Assembly (NCBI GenBank): GCA_016192985.1
Contig: JACPTC010000064.1
Coordinates: 1 to 22,802 of the forward strand
DNA from: Candidatus Woesearchaeota archaeon
GTDB lineage: Archaea > Nanobdellota > Nanobdellia > Woesearchaeales > GW2011-AR4
Reading direction: 5' to 3'
DNA length: 22,802 bases
The notes under the pieces are model-generated. The model saw only the letters and a program-made list of their open reading frames with translations. It did not search any database and was not told the DNA's origin. A program made the translations under genes and the position numbers. Below are positions 1,274 to 16,944 of the stretch, in pieces. How positions within the stretch are numbered: position 1 is the stretch's first letter; each line of letters begins with the position of its first letter.

Positions 1274-3229
1274 ATGGAATTTGTAAAAAGGCTATTTGGA
1301 AGCAAAGAAGTTGAAACTAATGTCGATGAAACAATATTTTCAGCCAGTTTTGAAAAAGAAAAACAAATAGTTTCTGCTTTAAATATGGTTGGTGCTGGTT
1401 TTGAAGCACGAGGCGGAAGTTCATTAATGTTAACAGAAGCAGTTGAGAATGGTGTCGATGCAATTATAAAATTCAATGAAAATAAAAAAAAGAAAATCAA
1501 AGGAAAAATCAAAGTGCTGATTGACAAAGACAATGAAAGAATATTGATAATAGATAATGGCACTGGATTTTTGCAAATCAAGCACGTTTGCGAGAAACCT
1601 TTTGATTCATTGAAAGAGCTGGATATTACTCAAACAGGAAAATTTGCTAGAGGATTGCAGGGGTTTAGAGCATTTTGTGAAAATTTATATTTCATCACAA
1701 AAAGACTTCCCGAAGATATACCTTCCAATGAAACTGATGTCATACCTGCTAATGCAGGTTCTTCTAGGCTTGTAGTTAAACTTGAGTTTAATTCAATGTC
1801 CAGTAAAGTTAAAGTAAAATATATAGATAAGTCCAAATTTGATGAATATTCAAATTCAGAGCATGGTACAATTTGCATATATGAAAAATGGAAACCTGGA
1901 CTGTTTGAAAAATTTAATGTAAATATGTTGTTTAAAAGACTTCAACACCATTTTGGAGAATTAATTAGAAAAGGAGAAATACGAATACTCGTAGAATCAT
2001 ACGAAGGAAAAATCGCGGAAATAGGACCTGAACAAGAAAAATTTCAGGAAGTTGAACCAAGAGACTATTCAGGATTTACTCCCATAGTCATCAATCCAAT
2101 TCCTTATGATAAAAATGAGAAAAAAGGAGAAATAAGTTTCAATTTGCACTTGTGTGATAGGGGTAGAAGTGATAGATGGAATCAGCCCTACTTGCTTTTT
2201 CAAGGAAGACCAGTTGGAGATGGATTTGTCTCAGAAATAGATGAATTTGCAGAACGTCCTATATGGAAACATAGGTTTCTTACTGGATATGTAACATGTG
2301 ATTTTTGTGAAATTAACGAACTAAGACAAGGTTTAAAAATTAATGATGAACGTGATCTTTTATTCAAGGAACTTCTCAAAATTGAAAAATTACTTGAGAA
2401 TAAAGTAAAGGAACATTCCAAAGGATTGTATGAGTTAAAGTTACAGAGACAAGTTAGCGAACTTGTAAAGGATTTACAATTATTTTTTAAATCAAAGAAT
2501 ATATTTAATTTTAAGATAGCTAAGAGTATGGGATTTCTCTCAAAAGAAAACAATGAGATTGAAGTTGTGGAGTTAGCAAAGTCAACCGGTCAAGACCCTA
2601 ATTTGGAAGTAAAAAATCCTGCAGGAGAAGGTACAGAAATATCTGGCATGGAAAAATTTGAAAACACAAATGTAAAAAAGGAGGAAGGGGGACAAGAAAA
2701 AACATTAAACCCTGATTTAGGAACACATGGAGATGGTCATGGCCAAATAAAGGCAGGTGGTCTAGGAGAAGATGCAAAAGTTGCCGAATTGCAAGATAAG
2801 GATAAAGAGAAGGGCTTTAAAGAATCTGAAAAAGGTATTAATAAACCTACAGAACAAACACAACCTCACGAGACTGGGGGAAATGATAAAATTAAGAGAA
2901 AAGGAATGAGGCATAAACCTCGTGGATTTGGCATGGTATTTCAGGATGACGAATTTAATGAAGACCTATCATGGTTTGATGAATTGAATTCAGTTGTCAT
3001 AATTAACTCACAACATCCTAGATACTTATCAAGATTAGAAGATGAATCTCACTTTAGAGATTTAATGAATTATTTAGCAGAATTGTATGTTTGGGAAATA
3101 ACCAAACTAGTACATTCGAAAGATGATGAACTCCAAAAAGGTATGAAATTTCTCGACTATAAATTTGAATATTTTGAAAAGATGAGAAGAGACCAGCAAG
3201 AAGGTGTCTATGCAAATGATTCAGAGTGA
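1274..3229 (+). CDS. GHKL-superfamily (MORC / Hsp90 / MutL-like, HATPase_c_3-type) ATPase with a long low-complexity linker and a conserved-looking C-terminal domain
   Basis: Bergerat-fold motifs occur in order: N-box LTEAVENGVDAI (E-x-x-x-N-x-x-D-A), G1 box LIIDNGTGF (D-x-G-x-G), and a G2-like TGKFARGLQGFRAF. An acidic/lysine/glycine-rich segment spans about residues 440-545. The C-terminal block is RGFGMVFQDDEFNEDLSWFDELNSVVIINSQHPRY. Confidence 0.75.
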   Translation: MEFVKRLFGSKEVETNVDETIFSASFEKEKQIVSALNMVGAGFEARGGSSLMLTEAVENGVDAIIKFNENKKKKIKGKIKVLIDKDNERILIIDNGTGFLQIKHVCEKPFDSLKELDITQTGKFARGLQGFRAFCENLYFITKRLPEDIPSNETDVIPANAGSSRLVVKLEFNSMSSKVKVKYIDKSKFDEYSNSEHGTICIYEKWKPGLFEKFNVNMLFKRLQHHFGELIRKGEIRILVESYEGKIAEIGPEQEKFQEVEPRDYSGFTPIVINPIPYDKNEKKGEISFNLHLCDRGRSDRWNQPYLLFQGRPVGDGFVSEIDEFAERPIWKHRFLTGYVTCDFCEINELRQGLKINDERDLLFKELLKIEKLLENKVKEHSKGLYELKLQRQVSELVKDLQLFFKSKNIFNFKIAKSMGFLSKENNEIEVVELAKSTGQDPNLEVKNPAGEGTEISGMEKFENTNVKKEEGGQEKTLNPDLGTHGDGHGQIKAGGLGEDAKVAELQDKDKEKGFKESEKGINKPTEQTQPHETGGNDKIKRKGMRHKPRGFGMVFQDDEFNEDLSWFDELNSVVIINSQHPRYLSRLEDESHFRDLMNYLAELYVWEITKLVHSKDDELQKGMKFLDYKFEYFEKMRRDQQEGVYANDSE

Positions 3230-4130
3230 TCTTCAAAGCATAGTGGATTTCTATTCAACAATTATTAGTAAAGAAAGAGTAGGCTCTAGATTTGAGGCTC
3301 ATGATGTAAAAAAGATATGGAAACTTGGAGACATGATTATATCTACCATCAAACCTCTTGATTTAACAAGTTTGTTACCTAAGTTAGATCAAATTCACAA
3401 AATTAAAAGCATTCGTTATCGAGACATGCTTTACAGGGCTGCAATCACTTTTAGAAGATACTGGCAAGAGGAAACACAATACAAAGAAGTAGTAAACTAT
3501 CTTAACATATGGAGAAAACTAAGGGCATTTTATCCAGTCTGTGAAGAAATTCTTAAAGGAGATGCTAAATACACAATAAATGACGTTGATAATTTAATTA
3601 AACAATGCAAGGATAAGACTGCTGAAGAAATAATTGAATTAACAAAAAGACTGCGAAAAAAAGATGATAAAATTCTTGAAGAATTGAGAATAGATTTATA
3701 CGAGTTCAGGGAATCTCTTATTAATGTATCGGATGAATTACTCAAAATAATAGAAGAAGACTCAAAAACTGAGAATGAGTTGAGAAAAATATATTCTCCA
3801 GAACAATTACGAGCTTTTAGATTATTATTGTCTGCTTTGCAGAAGGAAGAAGTATACTTAAAACATAACCAAGGAATCAAGAAAACAGTAAAAAAAGTGT
3901 TATCTCAAACAGATTTAGAAATAGGTAATCAATTAAATGAGATTTTTAACTCTATTAATAGATTTATAAATAACGAAAAAGCTAGAATCTTAGTCAGAAA
4001 GGAAATTCCTGTTACTTTTATAGGCAATTTATCAACATATTTAAGGGCGGTAGAATCTGACGCAAACAAAGAACAATATAAAAAAAATAAGGAGATTCTC
4101 AACAAATTTATAGGAAAAATGAGTTCATAA
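3204..4130 (+). CDS. 308-aa all-helical protein of unknown function, translationally overlapped with the GHKL ATPase gene
   Basis: The long ORF has a start region (ATGs at 3204/3210/3216) that overlaps the ATPase stop (3227-3229). I recognise no catalytic motif. Confidence 0.6.
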   Translation: MSMQMIQSDLQSIVDFYSTIISKERVGSRFEAHDVKKIWKLGDMIISTIKPLDLTSLLPKLDQIHKIKSIRYRDMLYRAAITFRRYWQEETQYKEVVNYLNIWRKLRAFYPVCEEILKGDAKYTINDVDNLIKQCKDKTAEEIIELTKRLRKKDDKILEELRIDLYEFRESLINVSDELLKIIEEDSKTENELRKIYSPEQLRAFRLLLSALQKEEVYLKHNQGIKKTVKKVLSQTDLEIGNQLNEIFNSINRFINNEKARILVRKEIPVTFIGNLSTYLRAVESDANKEQYKKNKEILNKFIGKMSS

Positions 4131-4492: not shown

Positions 4493-5521
4493 ATGAAAAT
4501 AGCTATACTTACACCTACGTTTAATTACTATAGCGGTATTGATAGGGTAGCTCAAGATAGGGCAGAGCGACTTTCAAAAAAAGGTCATAAAGTAACTGTT
4601 TTTGCATTTGAAGCAAAAATTAAGCCAAAAGGTTATAAAACTATAAGAATATATATATCACAATTTTTAGAAAGGTTTTATAGGTTATTTCCATTCTTGT
4701 ATTTTAATAAAAATATTATTAAAAAACTTAAAGAGTTTGACCAAATAATATCCTTTAACGAACCGATGGATTCTATTGCAGTTCAAGCAAAAAAAAGATA
4801 TAAAATAGAATATATTGCTTGGTTTAGTGGTTTTTATGCGCGTGGTGAAAATCTGCTAGAAAAAATTTATATGACTATCTTTAGATATTTTTATCTTAAA
4901 GATCTTAAACAAGCCGATAAGATTGTATGTGTCAGTAACACTATTAAAAATAAATTAATTAATTCTGATATTGATATTAAAAAAACAAAAGTTGAATATG
5001 ATTTAAATAATATTGATAAATCTAGATTTAATAGAAATGTAAAAAAAATGAATTTAAGCAAGATAAATGAAATAATTAGAAATTATAATTTACAAAACAA
5101 AAGAGTGTTCCTGTATGTAGGTAGACTTGCCACTAGCAAAAGAGTGGATTTGTTAATTAAAATGTTCAAAATGGAAAAAAATGAACATCCAGAATATAAA
5201 CTTATAATAGTAGGAAAACCAACATTTAAAAGATATTTCAAAAAATTATTAAGTATGGCTGATGAAGATGTAATTTTTACTGGCGAAGTATATGATAAAG
5301 ATTTACCAGCTTATTATGCTGTATCTGATGTTTTTGTAACGGCATCGCAAGATGAGGGATTTAATTTGCCTGCTGTGGAAGCTCAAGCTTGTGGTAAACC
5401 AGTAGTTGCTTTTGATGTTGGATCTAATAGGGAATTAATTAAAAAAGGTACTTTAGTTCGAGAAGGAGACATAAATGGGTTCACTAGTGCTATGAATAGT
5501 TATGCTAATTCTGTCCGTTAA
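4493..5521 (+). CDS. GT4-family (Glycos_transf_1) glycosyltransferase
   Basis: The C-terminal signature EGFNLPAVEAQACGKPVVAFDVGSNRELI (E-x7-E type) and the N-terminus MKIAILTPTF are typical of GT4. I prefer ATG 4493, preceded by the purine-rich GGAAGGGGGGTG, over the track's GTG at 4481. Confidence 0.8.
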   Translation: MKIAILTPTFNYYSGIDRVAQDRAERLSKKGHKVTVFAFEAKIKPKGYKTIRIYISQFLERFYRLFPFLYFNKNIIKKLKEFDQIISFNEPMDSIAVQAKKRYKIEYIAWFSGFYARGENLLEKIYMTIFRYFYLKDLKQADKIVCVSNTIKNKLINSDIDIKKTKVEYDLNNIDKSRFNRNVKKMNLSKINEIIRNYNLQNKRVFLYVGRLATSKRVDLLIKMFKMEKNEHPEYKLIIVGKPTFKRYFKKLLSMADEDVIFTGEVYDKDLPAYYAVSDVFVTASQDEGFNLPAVEAQACGKPVVAFDVGSNRELIKKGTLVREGDINGFTSAMNSYANSVR

Positions 5522-12235: not shown

Positions 12236-13282
12236 CTAAGCAGGACAGTCTGGATGTTGGTTGTGCAATTCTATTATCTTGTTGATTTTATCTTGAGGGA
12301 TTTTGTTATGCGGCTTTTGAAGATTGTTTCTCCATTCTTTTAAGCCGTCAAAATCTTCATAAAGATTCATCATTCTTAAGAATTTGTTGTACTTTTCAGG
12401 GCTTAAAGTCATTAATTGTTGTTTTAATAACTTTAGATTGTTTTCTTTTTTCGATATGATTATTGATTTAAAATCACCATTTTGAATTGAATTTATGCCT
12501 AACCTTTTCAAGCATTGTTGGAATAATAATCTTTCATTCGGGTCTTTTGCTGTTATGAAAACTCTGTATCTCTTATCAGGAATATACACTTCTACATTTG
12601 ATTCTCCAGCTATTATACCTTTCATAAACCATCTAACCTCATTATCATTAAATTCAAGAATTTTATAAAAGATATTTTTAATAAAACTTTTTAATATTTG
12701 ACTAAATAAGTTAGAGCCCATCTCAATTATCAATGTTCCATAATCATAAAATCCTACTTGTATATTTTTAGTATTCTTAATGTAGCTAACCTTTTTAGGA
12801 TAAGACCACTCCAGAGATAATCCAATTTTAGAAATCCAATAATCAATGACTTTGTTTTCTACTTCTTTTTTATAATTTTCATCAGAAGGTTCGTTAATGT
12901 TGACTTTTATGTACCATTTCCAAGAATCTTTTGGTAAATCAAATTCTTTTTCAAACCATTCCATGACTTTTTTGACTAATCTGTATTCATGGTTACAGAA
13001 TACAACTTTACCATCATGCTGTTTTCCCATTTCAGCTTGCAATAATCCCAGAACTTCAAAAGTTTCCTGATTTCTTCTTACATATTTTGGGAGCAATAAT
13101 TCATATTTTTTCTTGCCAACAAGTCCTGTATGGTTATGCAGTTCGGTAAAATAAGATAATTTTATGTAATTGCCATTTTCTTCTCTATTTAAATCAAAAC
13201 TTTTTTCTGGAAAATTCTTACAGATAACTCTACTTGGAATAAATTCTTCCAAACAAATTTTTTGATTTCTATATGAGTTCAT
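12236..13282 (-). CDS. Free-standing LAGLIDADG-like (double-motif) homing endonuclease candidate
   Basis: There are two LAGLIDADG-like helices: [13 protein letters not shown] followed by VVFCN (about residues 75-95), and [18 protein letters not shown] (about 217-233). The second is followed by the typical ...[22 protein letters not shown] segment. The gene is much more AT-rich than its neighbours. Confidence 0.55.
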
Positions 13283-13942: not shown

Positions 13943-14361
13943 TTCCCACCTACAGCCCTGCAGATATCTCTCACTTTGATATAGTCTGTCGACTGCAATT
14001 TTTTAGCTTCAGAGTTTTCCATAACAATTGGTTTTTCATTTATTAAGTTGTCAGGAATGCCTACGTAGCACTTAACATTTTTAAAAGCCTCTCTGCCTCG
14101 CGCCATCTTGAACGGAAGCATACCTCTTATTGTTCTTTTAACCAGCAAATCAGGCTTTTTATAAAAAAATGGAGCCTTTCCCGGGGCTTTTCTATGAAGC
14201 TTGGTTTTATACACCCCCAAAATAGCTTGCTTTTTCCCGCTTACAACACATTCTTCACAATTTATCACATGCACTTTGTTGCCTAGCAAAGCCTGTTTTG
14301 CAACAAAGCTGCTAAGCCTTCCCAAAATCGCATCTTTTGCTTCTACTATCATTTTAACCAA
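13939..14361 (-). CDS. rpl13: 50S ribosomal protein L13 (uL13)
   Basis: ILGRLSSFVAKQALLGNKVHVINCEECVVSG...KRTIRGMLPFKMARGREAFKNVKCYVGIP matches archaeal uL13. It overlaps S9 by 4 nt. Confidence 0.9.
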   Translation of the reverse strand: MVKMIVEAKDAILGRLSSFVAKQALLGNKVHVINCEECVVSGKKQAILGVYKTKLHRKAPGKAPFFYKKPDLLVKRTIRGMLPFKMARGREAFKNVKCYVGIPDNLINEKPIVMENSEAKKLQSTDYIKVRDICRAVGGK

Positions 14362-14719
14362 TTATCCTTATTCCTTTTCCGCTTGGATTTTCTCTGCTCA
14401 ATTCCAGCAATGGGATTATTTTTGCACCTGCTTTCTCAATCTTTTCTTTTGCCCCATCTGAAAATTGAAATGCGGATATTGTAAGCCTGTGATTCAGGTT
14501 GCCTGCGCCAAGAACTTTTCCAGGCACCACCACAATCTCATTCTCTTTTGTGTACCTGCTTATGCTTGATAAATTGACAACTCTTCTCTGCCTTGTGGGC
14601 TTTTCTAGGTCACTCGCAATCCTTTTCCACAAATTTACAGAATGCTCATTGCTTCTCTTTTTTAATTCATGGACCAATCCTTGTAATAGCGGATTTGTCG
14701 GTCCTGTTCTGTTTGCCAT
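14354..14719 (-). CDS. rpl18e: 50S ribosomal protein L18e (eL18)
   Basis: PTNPLLQGLVHELKK...LWKRIASDLEKPTRQRRVVNLSSISRYT...VVVPGKVLGAG matches the archaeal eL18 pattern, and the gene holds the conserved position before L13. Confidence 0.85.
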   Translation of the reverse strand: MANRTGPTNPLLQGLVHELKKRSNEHSVNLWKRIASDLEKPTRQRRVVNLSSISRYTKENEIVVVPGKVLGAGNLNHRLTISAFQFSDGAKEKIEKAGAKIIPLLELSRENPSGKGIRIIG

Positions 14720-14744
14720 TTTAATATTTTAATGATTTTTATTT

Positions 14745-15575
14745 TTATAATGCGGGGGAAGGGATTCGAACCCTCGCAGCCACTAAGGCATACGGTTTTT
14801 GCTTAGCGACCTCAACCGTATTCATTTGACCGGGCTCTGACACCCCCGCACTGAGTATGTTAGCACTTCCTTTAAGGATTTCATATCTCTGTTTGAGTGT
14901 AGTGCGAGGTGGACAGAATCCAAATCTCTTCCAAATCTCAAATTTAGTAATGTGCTTTGGATTATTTGAATCAATTAGTTTGAAGTATTTGATTACATTT
15001 TCTCCATCAATTTGTACCCTATTCAGATTATTCCAATTTTCAACCTTTTGTTTATATGATTTAACTATTATATTTTTAATTTCAAATTCTTTTAATATCT
15101 TACTTACTTCACTAATCAGTTCTTTAGATATGCTACTGATACTAATTCGTATTTTCTTGTAACTCTTTTTCTTGTTTGTGATACAATAAACTGTCCCGTC
15201 TGTATCAAAATGACCCCTCAAAAATCCTTTCATAAACTCCTTCTTTTCTAAAACCCATTCAGGAATTTTTAATTCTTGTTTTATACCTACTGGAACACCG
15301 AGCGAAACTAAGTAATTACAAATTTCTTTATTTTCTGTGCTAATTCCATAATAGGGCTTCTTACCTTTATACATTGTTGTAGGGATTTTAGCAATCATTT
15401 CATCAAATAATAGTTTAACATAATTATCATAATGTTCTCTATCTTCAATTATATGGCCCCTCATCTGAAATCTTAATTTTCCTCTATTTTTTCCGGAGTG
15501 CCTTCTTGTTAAGCTTCCATCTCCAAAACATAAACCTACAATTTCTGCTGTTTTTTCGTTTCTTATTACTTCCAT
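14745..15575 (-). CDS. LAGLIDADG homing endonuclease (double-motif); the ORF runs in frame through the whole tRNA-Leu gene
   Basis: The two motifs are IVGLCFGDGSL (about residues 12-22) and FMKGFLRGHFDTDGTVY (about 114-130), roughly 100 aa apart. A strong SD (GTGGAGGTATCAAAATG) precedes the start. The last 34 codons (14849-14748) are the tRNA sequence itself and the stop TAA lies 3 nt past the tRNA end. The true C-terminus is therefore uncertain. Confidence 0.8.
   Translation of the reverse strand: MEVIRNEKTAEIVGLCFGDGSLTRRHSGKNRGKLRFQMRGHIIEDREHYDNYVKLLFDEMIAKIPTTMYKGKKPYYGISTENKEICNYLVSLGVPVGIKQELKIPEWVLEKKEFMKGFLRGHFDTDGTVYCITNKKKSYKKIRISISSISKELISEVSKILKEFEIKNIIVKSYKQKVENWNNLNRVQIDGENVIKYFKLIDSNNPKHITKFEIWKRFGFCPPRTTLKQRYEILKGSANILSAGVSEPGQMNTVEVAKQKPYALVAARVRIPSPAL
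14751..14849 (-). tRNA. tRNA-Leu(GAG), class II (long variable arm), with a predicted ~13-nt intron 3' of position 37; no encoded CCA
   Basis: Folded by hand on the minus strand. The acceptor GCGGGGG pairs with CCCCCGC, with discriminator A. The D arm is TCA-GAGCCCGGTCAAA-TGA. The anticodon stem TACGG/CCGTA encloses TTGAGG + TCGCTAAGCAAAA + A, giving U33, anticodon GAG and G37. The variable arm is GCC-TTAGT-GGC and the T arm is GAGGG-TTCGAAT-CCCTT. Confidence 0.85.
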
Positions 15576-15702
15576 TTTGATACCTCCACAACTATTAAGT
15601 CGTAGAGTTTAATTATGATTTTTGAGCCATATATTTTTAGGCTTACCGTAGCCGACATTGCAAAGCAAGGGAAAAACATAATGAACGAAAAGTCTCCTTT
15701 TA

Positions 15703-15716
15703 TCTGCCACCCCCGC
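15703..15716 (-). repeat. 13/14-nt duplicate of the tRNA-Leu 5' end, forming a hairpin just after the rpoD stop
   Basis: The minus strand reads GCGGGGGTGGCAGA here and GCGGGGGTGTCAGA at 14849-14836, 867 bp apart and bracketing the endonuclease gene. Its first 5 nt pair with the upstream CCCGC (+ strand CCCGC-ATAA-GCGGG, 15712-15725). Confidence 0.6.
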
Positions 15717-15740
15717 ATAAGCGGGACAAATTATATTAAG

Positions 15741-16535
15741 CTATTTAGCTTTCTTTAACTCTTCTACAAACTCGTTAAGCATCTCATCAAAAATGTCAAT
15801 TGCCTTATTTACCATCTCCTTGCAGCTTAACTGACCAAATGATTCAATGTAAAACACAAAATCTGTATCGCTTGCAGTAACTTTGACATTTTTATCTATC
15901 TCTGAAAAGTTCAACGACAAATCGCAGTCAAGCACTTTGTCTTTGTTTATTGCCAGCTTTCTGTCCCTTATCTCAAAAATATTGTTGTGGTCTACCTCTA
16001 TTATAGATTCAGGATTTTTTACTTCGCCGGTGATTTCTATAATCGGCCTGTATTTGTAATAAACATGGCCTGGGCTCCATTTGATATGGTCTTTTCCTTT
16101 TCCCAAAACTGAAGTAGCCTCAAGTTCAAGAGACTGGCCTTTCAGAAGCTTTACAATAGGTATATTGCCATAAACCGGCTTCACAGCTGGATCTTTGCTT
16201 TTAATCTCAGAAGCATAAACACTGCCAATTTTTGTTGTTTTCAGCACCATCTTCAGCTGGCATCTATTGCAGCCCTTGCCTTCGCATTTGCATTTTTTAG
16301 GTATATTGTAGGATTTTAAGTCTGTCTTTAATGGAATTAACCCAAGCCTGTGCGCTACCATCTCATCGTAAAGTACAGAGTTGTTCTTTATAAACTCAAC
16401 ATCCTCAACAGCCATTGTAGGAACCTCGTCAAGGATAAGCCTTCTTAGTGTGTTCGCATAGACTGAATTAGAGTCTTTCAAAATAAAAGACAATTTGCCT
16501 TCATCCTTATTGTTGTCAAGAACCCTTATTTCCAT
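15741..16535 (-). CDS. rpoD: DNA-directed RNA polymerase subunit D (Rpo3)
   Basis: ANTLRRLILDEVPTMAVEDVEFIKNNSVLYDEMVAHRLGLIPLK plus the Cys cluster CKCEGKGCNRC match the archaeal subunit D. I start at ATG 16535 (MEIRVL), preceded by GAGGAGGCTAAA. The track's 16592 start would overlap S11 by 47 nt. Confidence 0.9.
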   Translation of the reverse strand: MEIRVLDNNKDEGKLSFILKDSNSVYANTLRRLILDEVPTMAVEDVEFIKNNSVLYDEMVAHRLGLIPLKTDLKSYNIPKKCKCEGKGCNRCQLKMVLKTTKIGSVYASEIKSKDPAVKPVYGNIPIVKLLKGQSLELEATSVLGKGKDHIKWSPGHVYYKYRPIIEITGEVKNPESIIEVDHNNIFEIRDRKLAINKDKVLDCDLSLNFSEIDKNVKVTASDTDFVFYIESFGQLSCKEMVNKAIDIFDEMLNEFVEELKKAK

Positions 16536-16545
16536 TTTAGCCTCC

Positions 16546-16944
16546 TCAAACGCGCCTTCCTCTTTTGCCGCCTTTCTTTCTGCAACCGTCATGCGGCAAT
16601 GGCGTAACTTCCTCTATAATCCCAATCCTAAGCCCCATTCTTGATAAAGCTCTTATCGCTGCTTGTGCACCTGGGCCTGGGCTTGTAGGGCCATTGTGCC
16701 CGCCTGGCGCTTTTATCTTAACATGAATGCCAGTTATACCCTTGTCCATGGCAATTTCAGCCGCTTTTTTTGCAGCAATCATTGCAGCTGTGGGAGAGCC
16801 TTCCATACGGTCGCTCTTTACAACCATTCCTCCTGAGCCAACAGCTATTGTTTCTGTGCCAGTTATGTCAGTGATGTGGATAATTGTGTTGTTGTATGAC
16901 GCATAGATATGTGCAATTCCCCACCTTTGCTGCCTTTGTTCCAT
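16546..16944 (-). CDS. rps11: 30S ribosomal protein S11 (uS11)
   Basis: [26 protein letters not shown]...[11 protein letters not shown] is the uS11 signature. Confidence 0.95.

Follow-up and report, generated by a model that had tools for sequence, protein, structure and literature searches.

A likely mobile LAGLIDADG endonuclease cassette within the tRNA-Leu(GAG) gene of a Woesearchaeota ribosomal-protein operon

How can a homing endonuclease gene reside in an operon of essential genes directly in front of a tRNA gene, and why does the beginning of this tRNA occur a second time on the far side of the endonuclease gene? This question is raised by a 22,802-nt stretch of DNA from Candidatus Woesearchaeota archaeon (contig JACPTC010000064.1, assembly GCA_016192985.1), the whole of which we refer to as the window. 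On its minus strand, which carries the features discussed here, rpoD is followed by a 14-nt tRNA 5' fragment, a 127-nt leader, an open reading frame (ORF) for a LAGLIDADG endonuclease, the gene for tRNA-Leu(GAG), and the gene for L18e (Table 1). A sequence-only reading of this arrangement had offered three explanations: insertion of the endonuclease gene at the tRNA 5' boundary with duplication of the target, what is left of an older tRNA copy after replacement of its body, and a very large non-canonical intron or leader that is processed out. We consider it likely that a mobile LAGLIDADG cassette lies inside the resident tRNA-Leu(GAG) gene of the S13-S4-S11-RpoD-tRNA-L18e operon and that it spreads via DNA cleavage and repair. 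The architecture of the cassette and its mobility can be proposed with reasonable confidence, the mechanism involving a cut-resistant tRNA allele with less.

The duplicated tRNA 5' end and the empty site

The two copies of the tRNA 5' end, GCGGGGGTGTCAGA at the start of the functional gene and GCGGGGGTGGCAGA behind rpoD, are identical in 13 of 14 positions. They are the sole matches with at most two mismatches in the 22.8 kb of the window, for which shuffled sequences predict 0.03 matches; none of 100 shuffles gave two. The repeat described in the sequence-only reading is hence the only pair of its kind in the window. The insert associated with it comprises 867 nt (15702-14836), namely the structured leader, the LAGLIDADG gene, and a new copy of tRNA nt 1-14 or more, which joins the tRNA body in register so that a complete tRNA gene follows the endonuclease gene. 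Two known types of organization can be recognized here: Direct repeats of a tRNA segment that flank an insert and leave a reconstituted tRNA correspond to the layout of integrative elements, and the order of relic (nt 1-14), leader, endonuclease gene, and intact tRNA corresponds to a free-standing endonuclease gene accompanied by a partial duplicate of its host gene.

The functional tRNA is recognized by Rfam over its full length with 41 bits (cut-off 29 bits) and a 16-nt insertion in the anticodon loop; the anticodon is located at 14813-14811 and an intron of about 13 nt in the anticodon loop at about 14809-14797. ARAGORN missed the gene with default settings and misread it as Phe(GAA) with the option -i. 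We assign it to Leu(GAG) because of the anticodon loop UUGAGG, the long variable arm, and the Leu(GAG) calls made by ARAGORN on close relatives. Intron-bearing tRNAs of 99 nt and of identical design are seen at sites that lack the endonuclease gene, for example in locus L014. Within the D-stem of the functional tRNA, T10 pairs with A25, and among relatives this pair covaries as G10/C25 or T10/A25. As a side observation, the tRNA-Leu(GAG) of L005 (4760-4888) appears to carry a second, non-canonical intron of ~31 nt in the 5' strand of the anticodon stem besides its anticodon-loop intron, and insertions in the D-arm region were also noted in several empty-site tRNAs (L013, L043, L055, and others).

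The relationship between the two copies becomes apparent from a comparison with relatives, which the sequence-only reading had recommended. An RpoD-based scan with one genome per species yielded 80 Woesearchaeota/Nanoarchaeia loci. A related endonuclease gene is present in three species representatives (L015, L017, L027), and 77 of the 80 sites are empty, with tRNA-Leu(GAG) beginning about 10-140 nt after the rpoD stop in most of them. At the empty site L010, the native leader taaCCCGCttatgct runs directly into the tRNA start GCGGGGGTGGCAGAGCC (also given as GCGGGGGTGGCAGAGCCTGG; empty-site sequence of this G10 type: CCCGCTTATGCT-GCGGGGGTGGCAGAGCCTGGTCAAATGCACAAGG), and in the window CCCGCttat runs into GCGGGGGTGGCAGA and from there into TAAAAGG. 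The native leader and the first 14 tRNA nucleotides of L010 match the upstream copy of the window, and the filled locus L017 and the empty locus L086 form a second pair with the same relationship. Moreover, the upstream copy is identical to the commonest natural allele, which occurs at 27 of 53 endonuclease-free loci. Because it is found at the position of the empty-site tRNA start and behind the same native leader, we identify it as a remnant of the resident gene. The comparison indicates that the functional tRNA 5' end arrived with the cassette and that the resident first 14 nt are now a non-functional relic. On these grounds, the idea of an older tRNA copy with a replaced body proved essentially right when combined with insertion, and the functional copy represents a different natural allele (T10/A25).

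The CCCGC of the native spacer pairs with the GCGGG of the relic, forming the hairpin CCCGC-TTAT-GCGGG that had been described as resembling a small acceptor stem and that is indeed present, with CCCGC-TTAT just before the upstream copy. Since complementarity between leader and acceptor strand also occurs at endonuclease-free loci, we regard this hairpin as a feature of the native leader: A C-rich stretch of at least 5 nt complementary to the first 5 nt of the tRNA (CCCGC...GCGGG) is found in 17% of them compared to 5% in shuffles (n=53). The same observation might be invoked to dissociate the 13/14 repeat from the endonuclease gene and to interpret it as a chance match or as a piece of a general rpoD terminator hairpin, but the enrichment is only modest and we rejected the hairpin as a conserved rpoD terminator. 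We give this interpretation virtually no weight in view of the 0.03 matches expected in the window and the homologous relics at the same place in eight other cassettes; the correspondence of the relic to the empty-site tRNA 5' end at that very position effectively refutes it. In addition, the spacer holds an AT-rich, TATA-like stretch of ~11-15 nt, CTTAATATAATTTGT, which is not found in the aligned empty-site relatives L010 and L014. Finally, modules of the form GCGGG...GTTCGGGAACCCGC were noticed in the rpoD-tRNA spacers of L028, L030, L086, L023, and L034 (~50-70 nt) as well as 5' of the relic in L015 and L017. They look like an acceptor 5' strand followed by a T-arm-like segment and the 3' strand of an acceptor stem, and may be much older tRNA remnants of earlier rounds of invasion and loss.

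The cassette and its spread between lineages

A double-motif LAGLIDADG gene between rpoD and tRNA-Leu, as previously proposed, was recovered at the same coordinates: The ORF 15575..14745 (minus strand) matches Pfam LAGLIDADG_1 with residues 12-91 (E 1.1e-4) and LAGLIDADG_3 with residues 113-201 (E 4.8e-13), and its two domains within one chain assign the enzyme to the monomeric double-motif type. Translation starts at ATG 15575 behind a GGAGGT ribosome-binding site. No stop interrupts the ORF of 276 aa ahead of the tRNA; it extends across the entire tRNA to a TAA at 14747-14745, so its final ~35 residues are translated tRNA sequence. G18-D19-G20 and D124-T125-D126 are invariant among 21 homologs down to 30% identity, and both motifs thus possess the conserved acidic residue, D19 and D126 being the catalytic aspartates; because both are invariant across the family, the endonuclease is probably active. 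The nearest solved structures, all matched by the family profile, are 2DCH, PI-PfuI, and I-DmoI, archaeal LAGLIDADG enzymes from introns or inteins. Protein homologs that are 44-70% identical originate from DPANN metagenome-assembled genomes and frequently end in translated-tRNA tails such as AGVSEPGQ, AGMSELGQ, and AEVAEPGQ. The AT-richness of the gene that had been noted earlier was reproduced, with exact spot counts of 10 and 30 G+C and a G+C content of 29.9% for the ORF versus 38.3% for rpoD and 40.4% for L18e (neighbors 38-41%).

The leader preceding the gene exhibits a mean column identity of 79% across nine loci, whose endonucleases are mutually 51-77% identical where computed. It contains two oligo-T tracts, two small hairpins, and a further hairpin occluding the GGAGGT ribosome-binding site. 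In the structure predicted by RNAalifold, a long stem pairs the two oligo-T tracts with two oligo-A tracts and encloses two hairpins in a three-way junction, followed by the ribosome-binding-site hairpin; only three pairs are compensatory because the leader sequences barely vary. An nhmmer search with the leader of the window (E<=0.01) produced matches in endonuclease-positive loci only and detected no leader remnants at empty sites; candidate remnants in the spacers of L016, L022, L024, and L026 were discarded as visual likenesses without significance. No Rfam family corresponds to the leader, the matches to VrrA and ceN48 being at chance level. A coding function was likewise rejected, as the 50-aa ORF 15718..15566 is broken by a stop in L004 and not conserved.

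The cassette occupies the same site in L001-L006, L015, L017, L027, L170-L173, and two more contigs; at least nine other lineages carry it there. The gene order S13-S4-S11-RpoD is common to all related loci, L18e follows the tRNA there as well, and the succession of rpoD, endonuclease gene, tRNA, and L18e recurs across the contigs with homologs. The relic, by contrast, varies in length: It measures 14 nt in the window and L004, 17 in L170, ~24 in L173 (with a 3-nt deletion), 12-13 in L027 and L015, 8 in L017, and 0 in L172, while L005 has neither relic nor leader. This range of 0 to ~24 nt fits an eroding dispensable remnant, not a functional exon or a fixed att core. The insertion proposed at the outset is retained, supported by the relic behind the native leader, whereas a staggered cut of the transposase type is at odds with so variable a repeat. 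According to the sequence-only reading, endonuclease genes devoid of the flanking repeat would have spoken against the connection; L172 and L005 are such cases, and we read them as the outcome of relic erosion rather than as a sign of a chance repeat. The endonucleases furthermore disagree with the phylogeny of their hosts: L017 and L027 share 88% identity in RpoD and 53% in the endonuclease, L001 and L027 58% and 77%, and L005 and L170 47% and 64%, respectively. It is this conflict between the endonuclease tree and the RpoD tree, together with the varying relics at one site, that leads us to regard the cassette as mobile. Sporadic presence combined with horizontal spread at one conserved site is the pattern of homing.

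A different view would hold that the endonuclease has been domesticated as a host factor that is inherited vertically and acts, for example, as a regulator or maturase of the tRNA or of the ribosomal-protein operon, and that the relic reflects an old accident. Intact ORFs with invariant motifs across deep divergence, the extreme conservation of the non-coding leader, and the fixed position within an essential operon would all suit such a role. It is nevertheless unlikely, since the gene is present in only three of the 80 species representatives, its tree conflicts with that of RpoD, its AT-rich composition is foreign to its surroundings, and the copy of L015 appears frameshifted. In this copy (4512-5239), the query matched only as two separate overlapping pieces, the first half being 80% and the second 41% identical to the protein of the window, which suggests a frameshifted and decaying gene; alternatively, it may be a recombinant between lineages with swapped half-site domains. 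Limited presence, tree conflict, apparent decay in L015, and foreign composition together outline the cycle of gain, decay, and loss that is typical of homing endonucleases.

Table 1. Features of the rpoD-L18e interval, in minus-strand order (positions in the window).
Feature	Coordinates	Strand	Basis
rpoD (RNA polymerase subunit D/Rpo3)	15741..16592	-	Pfam RNA_pol_A_bac, RNA_pol_L; 3' end and stop form the left flank
Native pre-tRNA spacer and leader, 24 nt, including CCCGC	15717..15740	-	taaCCCGCttatgct directly 5' of the tRNA at the empty site L010
Relic, resident tRNA-Leu nt 1-14, GCGGGGGTGGCAGA, G10 allele	15703..15716	-	Repeat match, common allele, native position relative to rpoD
Non-coding leader of the cassette, 127 nt	15576..15702	-	Conserved across 9 loci
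LAGLIDADG homing endonuclease coding region, true protein of 242 aa	14850..15575	-	Pfam matches, invariant Asp, GC 0.299
Cassette-borne replacement of tRNA nt 1-14, GCGGGGGTGTCAGA, T10 allele	14836..14849	-	T10/A25 pairing; D-stem covariation
Complete tRNA-Leu(GAG), 99 nt	14751..14849	-	Rfam tRNA, 41 bits, full length
L18e, right flank	14354..14719	-	Pfam Ribosomal_L18 and L27A; start 31 nt 3' of the tRNA

Elsewhere in the window, an AT-rich ORF of 348 aa (12236-13282, minus strand; GC 0.283) is located just after S9, in the slot of RpoN in related loci. It contains LAGLIDADG-like motifs with a sub-threshold Pfam match to LAGLIDADG_3 (E 0.053), and the interval separating it from S9 yielded no ORF of at least 50 aa that would fit RpoN. 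We consider it a possible second endonuclease insertion that has diverged strongly.

The linked tRNA allele and the mechanism of spread

If the cassette spreads by homing, its own tRNA should escape cleavage, and the comparison of relic and functional copy bears on this point. Position 10 differs between the two in all seven cassettes with an informative relic, and each variant is a natural allele: The relic has G and the functional copy T in the window, L170, and L173, and the converse applies to L004, L015, L027, and L001. At the 53 endonuclease-free loci, G is present in 38 and T in 15. Stronger evidence for a linked allele than this pattern is the distribution of GCGGGGATGTCTGAG, which together with the matching 3' acceptor strand TCCCCGC is found in L170, L172, L173, and the read-through tails of P0002, P0006, P0013, and P0017; it is confined to endonuclease-positive loci, with no occurrence at the 53 endonuclease-free ones. 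We infer from this that the endonuclease gene moves together with a tRNA allele of its own, which takes the place of the resident tRNA body; only the 5' end of the resident gene would survive, and the linked allele is probably not cut by its own endonuclease.

These observations can be accommodated in the following mechanism. The enzyme would cleave tRNA-Leu alleles that lack the endonuclease gene within their 5' third, and the break would be repaired from an endonuclease-positive chromosome, with rpoD and the relic side as the left arm and the tRNA body and L18e as the right arm. Repair would copy the cassette along with the linked tRNA allele, which is proposed to be cut-resistant. The host could tolerate the insertion as no splicing would be required: The endonuclease mRNA would constitute a long 5' leader of the pre-tRNA in the operon transcript, and ordinary 5' processing at tRNA +1 would release the tRNA. 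A precedent for such a logic is offered by free-standing endonucleases of phage T4, which drive the inheritance of a linked resistant allele, as exemplified by SegB in a tRNA gene cluster. In both systems, a sensitive allele would be cut and the endonuclease gene co-converted with a linked uncut allele. The T4 enzymes, however, are of the GIY-YIG type, act in phage co-infection, and leave no relic of the target gene.

Several points weigh against this account. Processing at the tRNA 5' end would leave the endonuclease mRNA without a stop codon. The leader is more conserved than the protein, for which a purely selfish element does not account. The pattern at position 10 stems from only ~3 independent clades, with a probability of ~0.06 under random pairing, and is suggestive only. 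Furthermore, within its first 34 nt the linked tRNA of the window is one base away from the common endonuclease-free allele L014, which would leave only the G10/T10 polymorphism and its D-stem partner as a basis for resistance. Cleavage itself, where the cut falls, and whether the linked allele resists it are inferred, and all data are metagenome assemblies, albeit with an architecture that recurs in more than ten independent ones.

Could the cassette instead be a functional giant intron? In that case, the upstream 14-mer would serve as the genuine 5' exon and be joined to tRNA nt 15, either by the archaeal splicing endonuclease or through self-splicing, and the 14-mer downstream would belong to the intron. 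The lineage does possess non-canonical tRNA introns, as in the extra 31-nt intron of L005, and two distant relatives carry members of the endonuclease family inside tRNA genes. In L137 (32% identical; about 190-1090, endonuclease gene on the plus strand), the ORF is exactly bracketed by a canonical bulge-helix-bulge (BHB) motif within tRNA-Leu(TAA), consisting of a 12-bp GC-rich outer helix, a 4-bp central helix CTCT/AGAG, and two AAA bulges. No other BHB intron with a LAGLIDADG gene in an archaeal tRNA is known to us. The L137 tRNA also seems to hold further nested or adjacent introns. In L106 (about 2445-3290), the endonuclease gene interrupts the D-loop of tRNA-Leu(GAG): Upstream of it lies the 5' exon GCGGGGATTGCCAAGCCTGGTCAAA with the acceptor strand and the 5' part of the D-arm; downstream, the tRNA resumes with the 3' strand of the D-stem and continues to the acceptor strand TCCCCGCA, and a second copy of the 5' part is lacking. 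The start-codon region of L106 and the end of the insert are linked by a 9-bp helix, GTATGCGTA/TACGCATAC, and no convincing BHB motif was found at this locus.

For the window, such an intron is extremely improbable. We searched for BHB motifs that would join the relic/leader side to the ORF-end/tRNA side, with random region pairs of the window as null and L137 as positive control, which scores 19. The best score of the window, 12, equals the mode of the null distribution (range 9-18), and close relatives are not above the null either. Within 14650-15800 there is no match to Intron_gpI or any other Rfam family at E<=10, and no family but tRNA exceeds its threshold; a group I intron would moreover have just 127 nt of non-coding sequence at its disposal. 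The relic is unfit as an exon: Its G10 would mispair with A25, the acceptor strand GCGAGGG of the L001 relic cannot pair with the tRNA 3' strand CCTCCGC, and L172 and L005 have no relic. Besides, an upstream exon is not required when a complete tRNA follows the ORF, and the sequence just 5' of tRNA +1 is not conserved among the cassettes. The third of the original explanations, a giant intron or processed-out leader, accordingly finds no support in the window, although the distant L137 contains a true BHB intron.

The remaining alternative considers the repeats as attL/attR scars of an integrase element of the pNOB8/SSV type in the tRNA 5' end, which later shrank and carried the endonuclease gene as mere cargo. 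The same layout has been described in Caldiarchaeum, where a tRNA-Thr fragment is located 1.8 kb upstream of the intact tRNA-Thr and the insert bears a recombinase (PMC3293823). Like these elements, the locus in the window displays a 5' tRNA fragment, an insert, a reconstituted tRNA, and a co-oriented adjacent gene, with inherited mismatches between fragment and copy. Yet no integrase or recombinase ORF is present in the cassette of the window or next to it, nor in any of more than ten homologous loci. The insert, 867 nt here, always consists of the leader and the endonuclease gene alone, the sole long ORF on the coding strand being LAGLIDADG; the repeat varies from 0 to ~24 nt instead of forming a fixed att core; and adjacency to tRNA tracks the LAGLIDADG family across many different tRNAs. 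We therefore regard an integrase scar as very unlikely and favor spread of the LAGLIDADG cassette by double-strand-break repair, which would differ from att recombination.

tRNA genes as targets of a larger endonuclease family

The association with a tRNA, which had been pointed out as unusual, extends to the protein family as a whole. When metagenome contigs were scanned with the family alignment, 80 more loci at 30-58% identity were obtained, and an exhaustive profile search counted 236 clusters with E<=1e-30, a number that rises to 2067 with E<=1e-10. In 67 of 88 evaluable loci (at least 76%), a tRNA on the same strand follows ~0-50 nt after the endonuclease gene, and several further loci with intron-rich tRNAs match by eye; Rfam confirmed a tRNA at the same start in 10 of 20 loci submitted. 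The adjoining tRNAs are nearly all Leu (GAG, AAG, CAA, TAA) or Arg(TCG). As in the window, the endonuclease ORF has no stop before tRNA +1 in 50 of 69 distinct family loci (72%). For annotation, this means that gene callers fuse such ORFs with the tRNA and report proteins with a translated-tRNA tail. Relics starting from tRNA nt 1 occur in other clades, too: 14 nt in L007, ~26 in L108, ~21 in L130, ~23 in L120, ~32 in L167, and ~24 in L168. Family-wide relic statistics by local alignment suffered from a heavy-tailed null, as some upstream regions contain whole tRNAs, and only three loci lay beyond the 99% threshold; the remaining relics were judged by their start at tRNA nt 1 and their continuation into D-arm sequence. 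We also noticed a second recurrent context, in which GatD, a small ORF, VIT1, and the endonuclease gene stand next to another class II tRNA (L009 (P0040) and the P0024 contig); in P0024, the called N-terminal extension translates a GCGGGGGTGG-like relic.

The occupation of a tRNA gene sets the family apart from better-known archaeal relatives. Within the literature that could be searched, archaeal LAGLIDADG genes have been reported in rRNA introns and inteins (PMC4496867), and all 39 archaeal group I introns of another study are situated in rRNA genes (PMC6125680). Enzymes from rRNA introns such as I-DmoI and I-Tsp061I belong to the same superfamily and address a conserved stable-RNA target, and the distant L137 is likewise bracketed by a BHB motif; the cassette in the window differs from them in its tRNA host gene, the lack of a BHB motif, and an arrangement for which no splicing is needed. 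A description of this family, or of LAGLIDADG genes beside or within archaeal tRNA genes, was not found in the searchable literature, whose coverage is incomplete, so that this is absence of evidence only. A close formal parallel comes from fungal mitochondria, where endonuclease genes of cob and atp6 are located between the host gene and a partial C-terminal duplicate (PMC6279837). Common to both is an endonuclease gene (LAGLIDADG or GIY-YIG in fungi) between an intact host gene and its partial duplicate, with a host gene that is functional without intron or intein. In fungi, however, it is the 3' part of a protein gene in an organelle that is duplicated, whereas the duplicate in the window stems from the 5' end of a tRNA gene that belongs to a ribosomal-protein operon on an archaeal chromosome, and the endonuclease ORF runs into the tRNA.

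As to the origin of the cassette, it would most likely derive from an endonuclease-bearing BHB intron in the D-loop or anticodon arm of a tRNA, comparable to L137 and possibly L106; duplication of the 5' exon would then have made splicing unnecessary. It is possible, though we advance this only tentatively, that DPANN harbor a large LAGLIDADG family specialized in tRNA-Leu and tRNA-Arg whose members interconvert between a BHB intron, a 5'-duplicating cassette, and a gene abutting tRNA +1 without a relic, with each lineage having its own resistant allele that is read around nt 10 and its D-stem partner.

If this holds true, the family would comprise hundreds of compact, probably active monomeric endonucleases whose targets, the D-arm regions of tRNAs, could be read from pairs of relic and functional copy. 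Their specificity could thus be tested directly and might be of use for enzyme engineering. Repair driven by such endonucleases would give rise to orphan 5' tRNA fragments, to non-canonical tRNA introns, and potentially to split tRNA genes, and would provide a mechanism for the stray 5' fragments, non-canonical introns, and disrupted tRNA genes of archaea that have hitherto been without an agreed cause. Besides introns and inteins, the cassette would represent a third way to occupy an essential stable-RNA gene harmlessly: by bringing along a spare copy of the part that it displaces.

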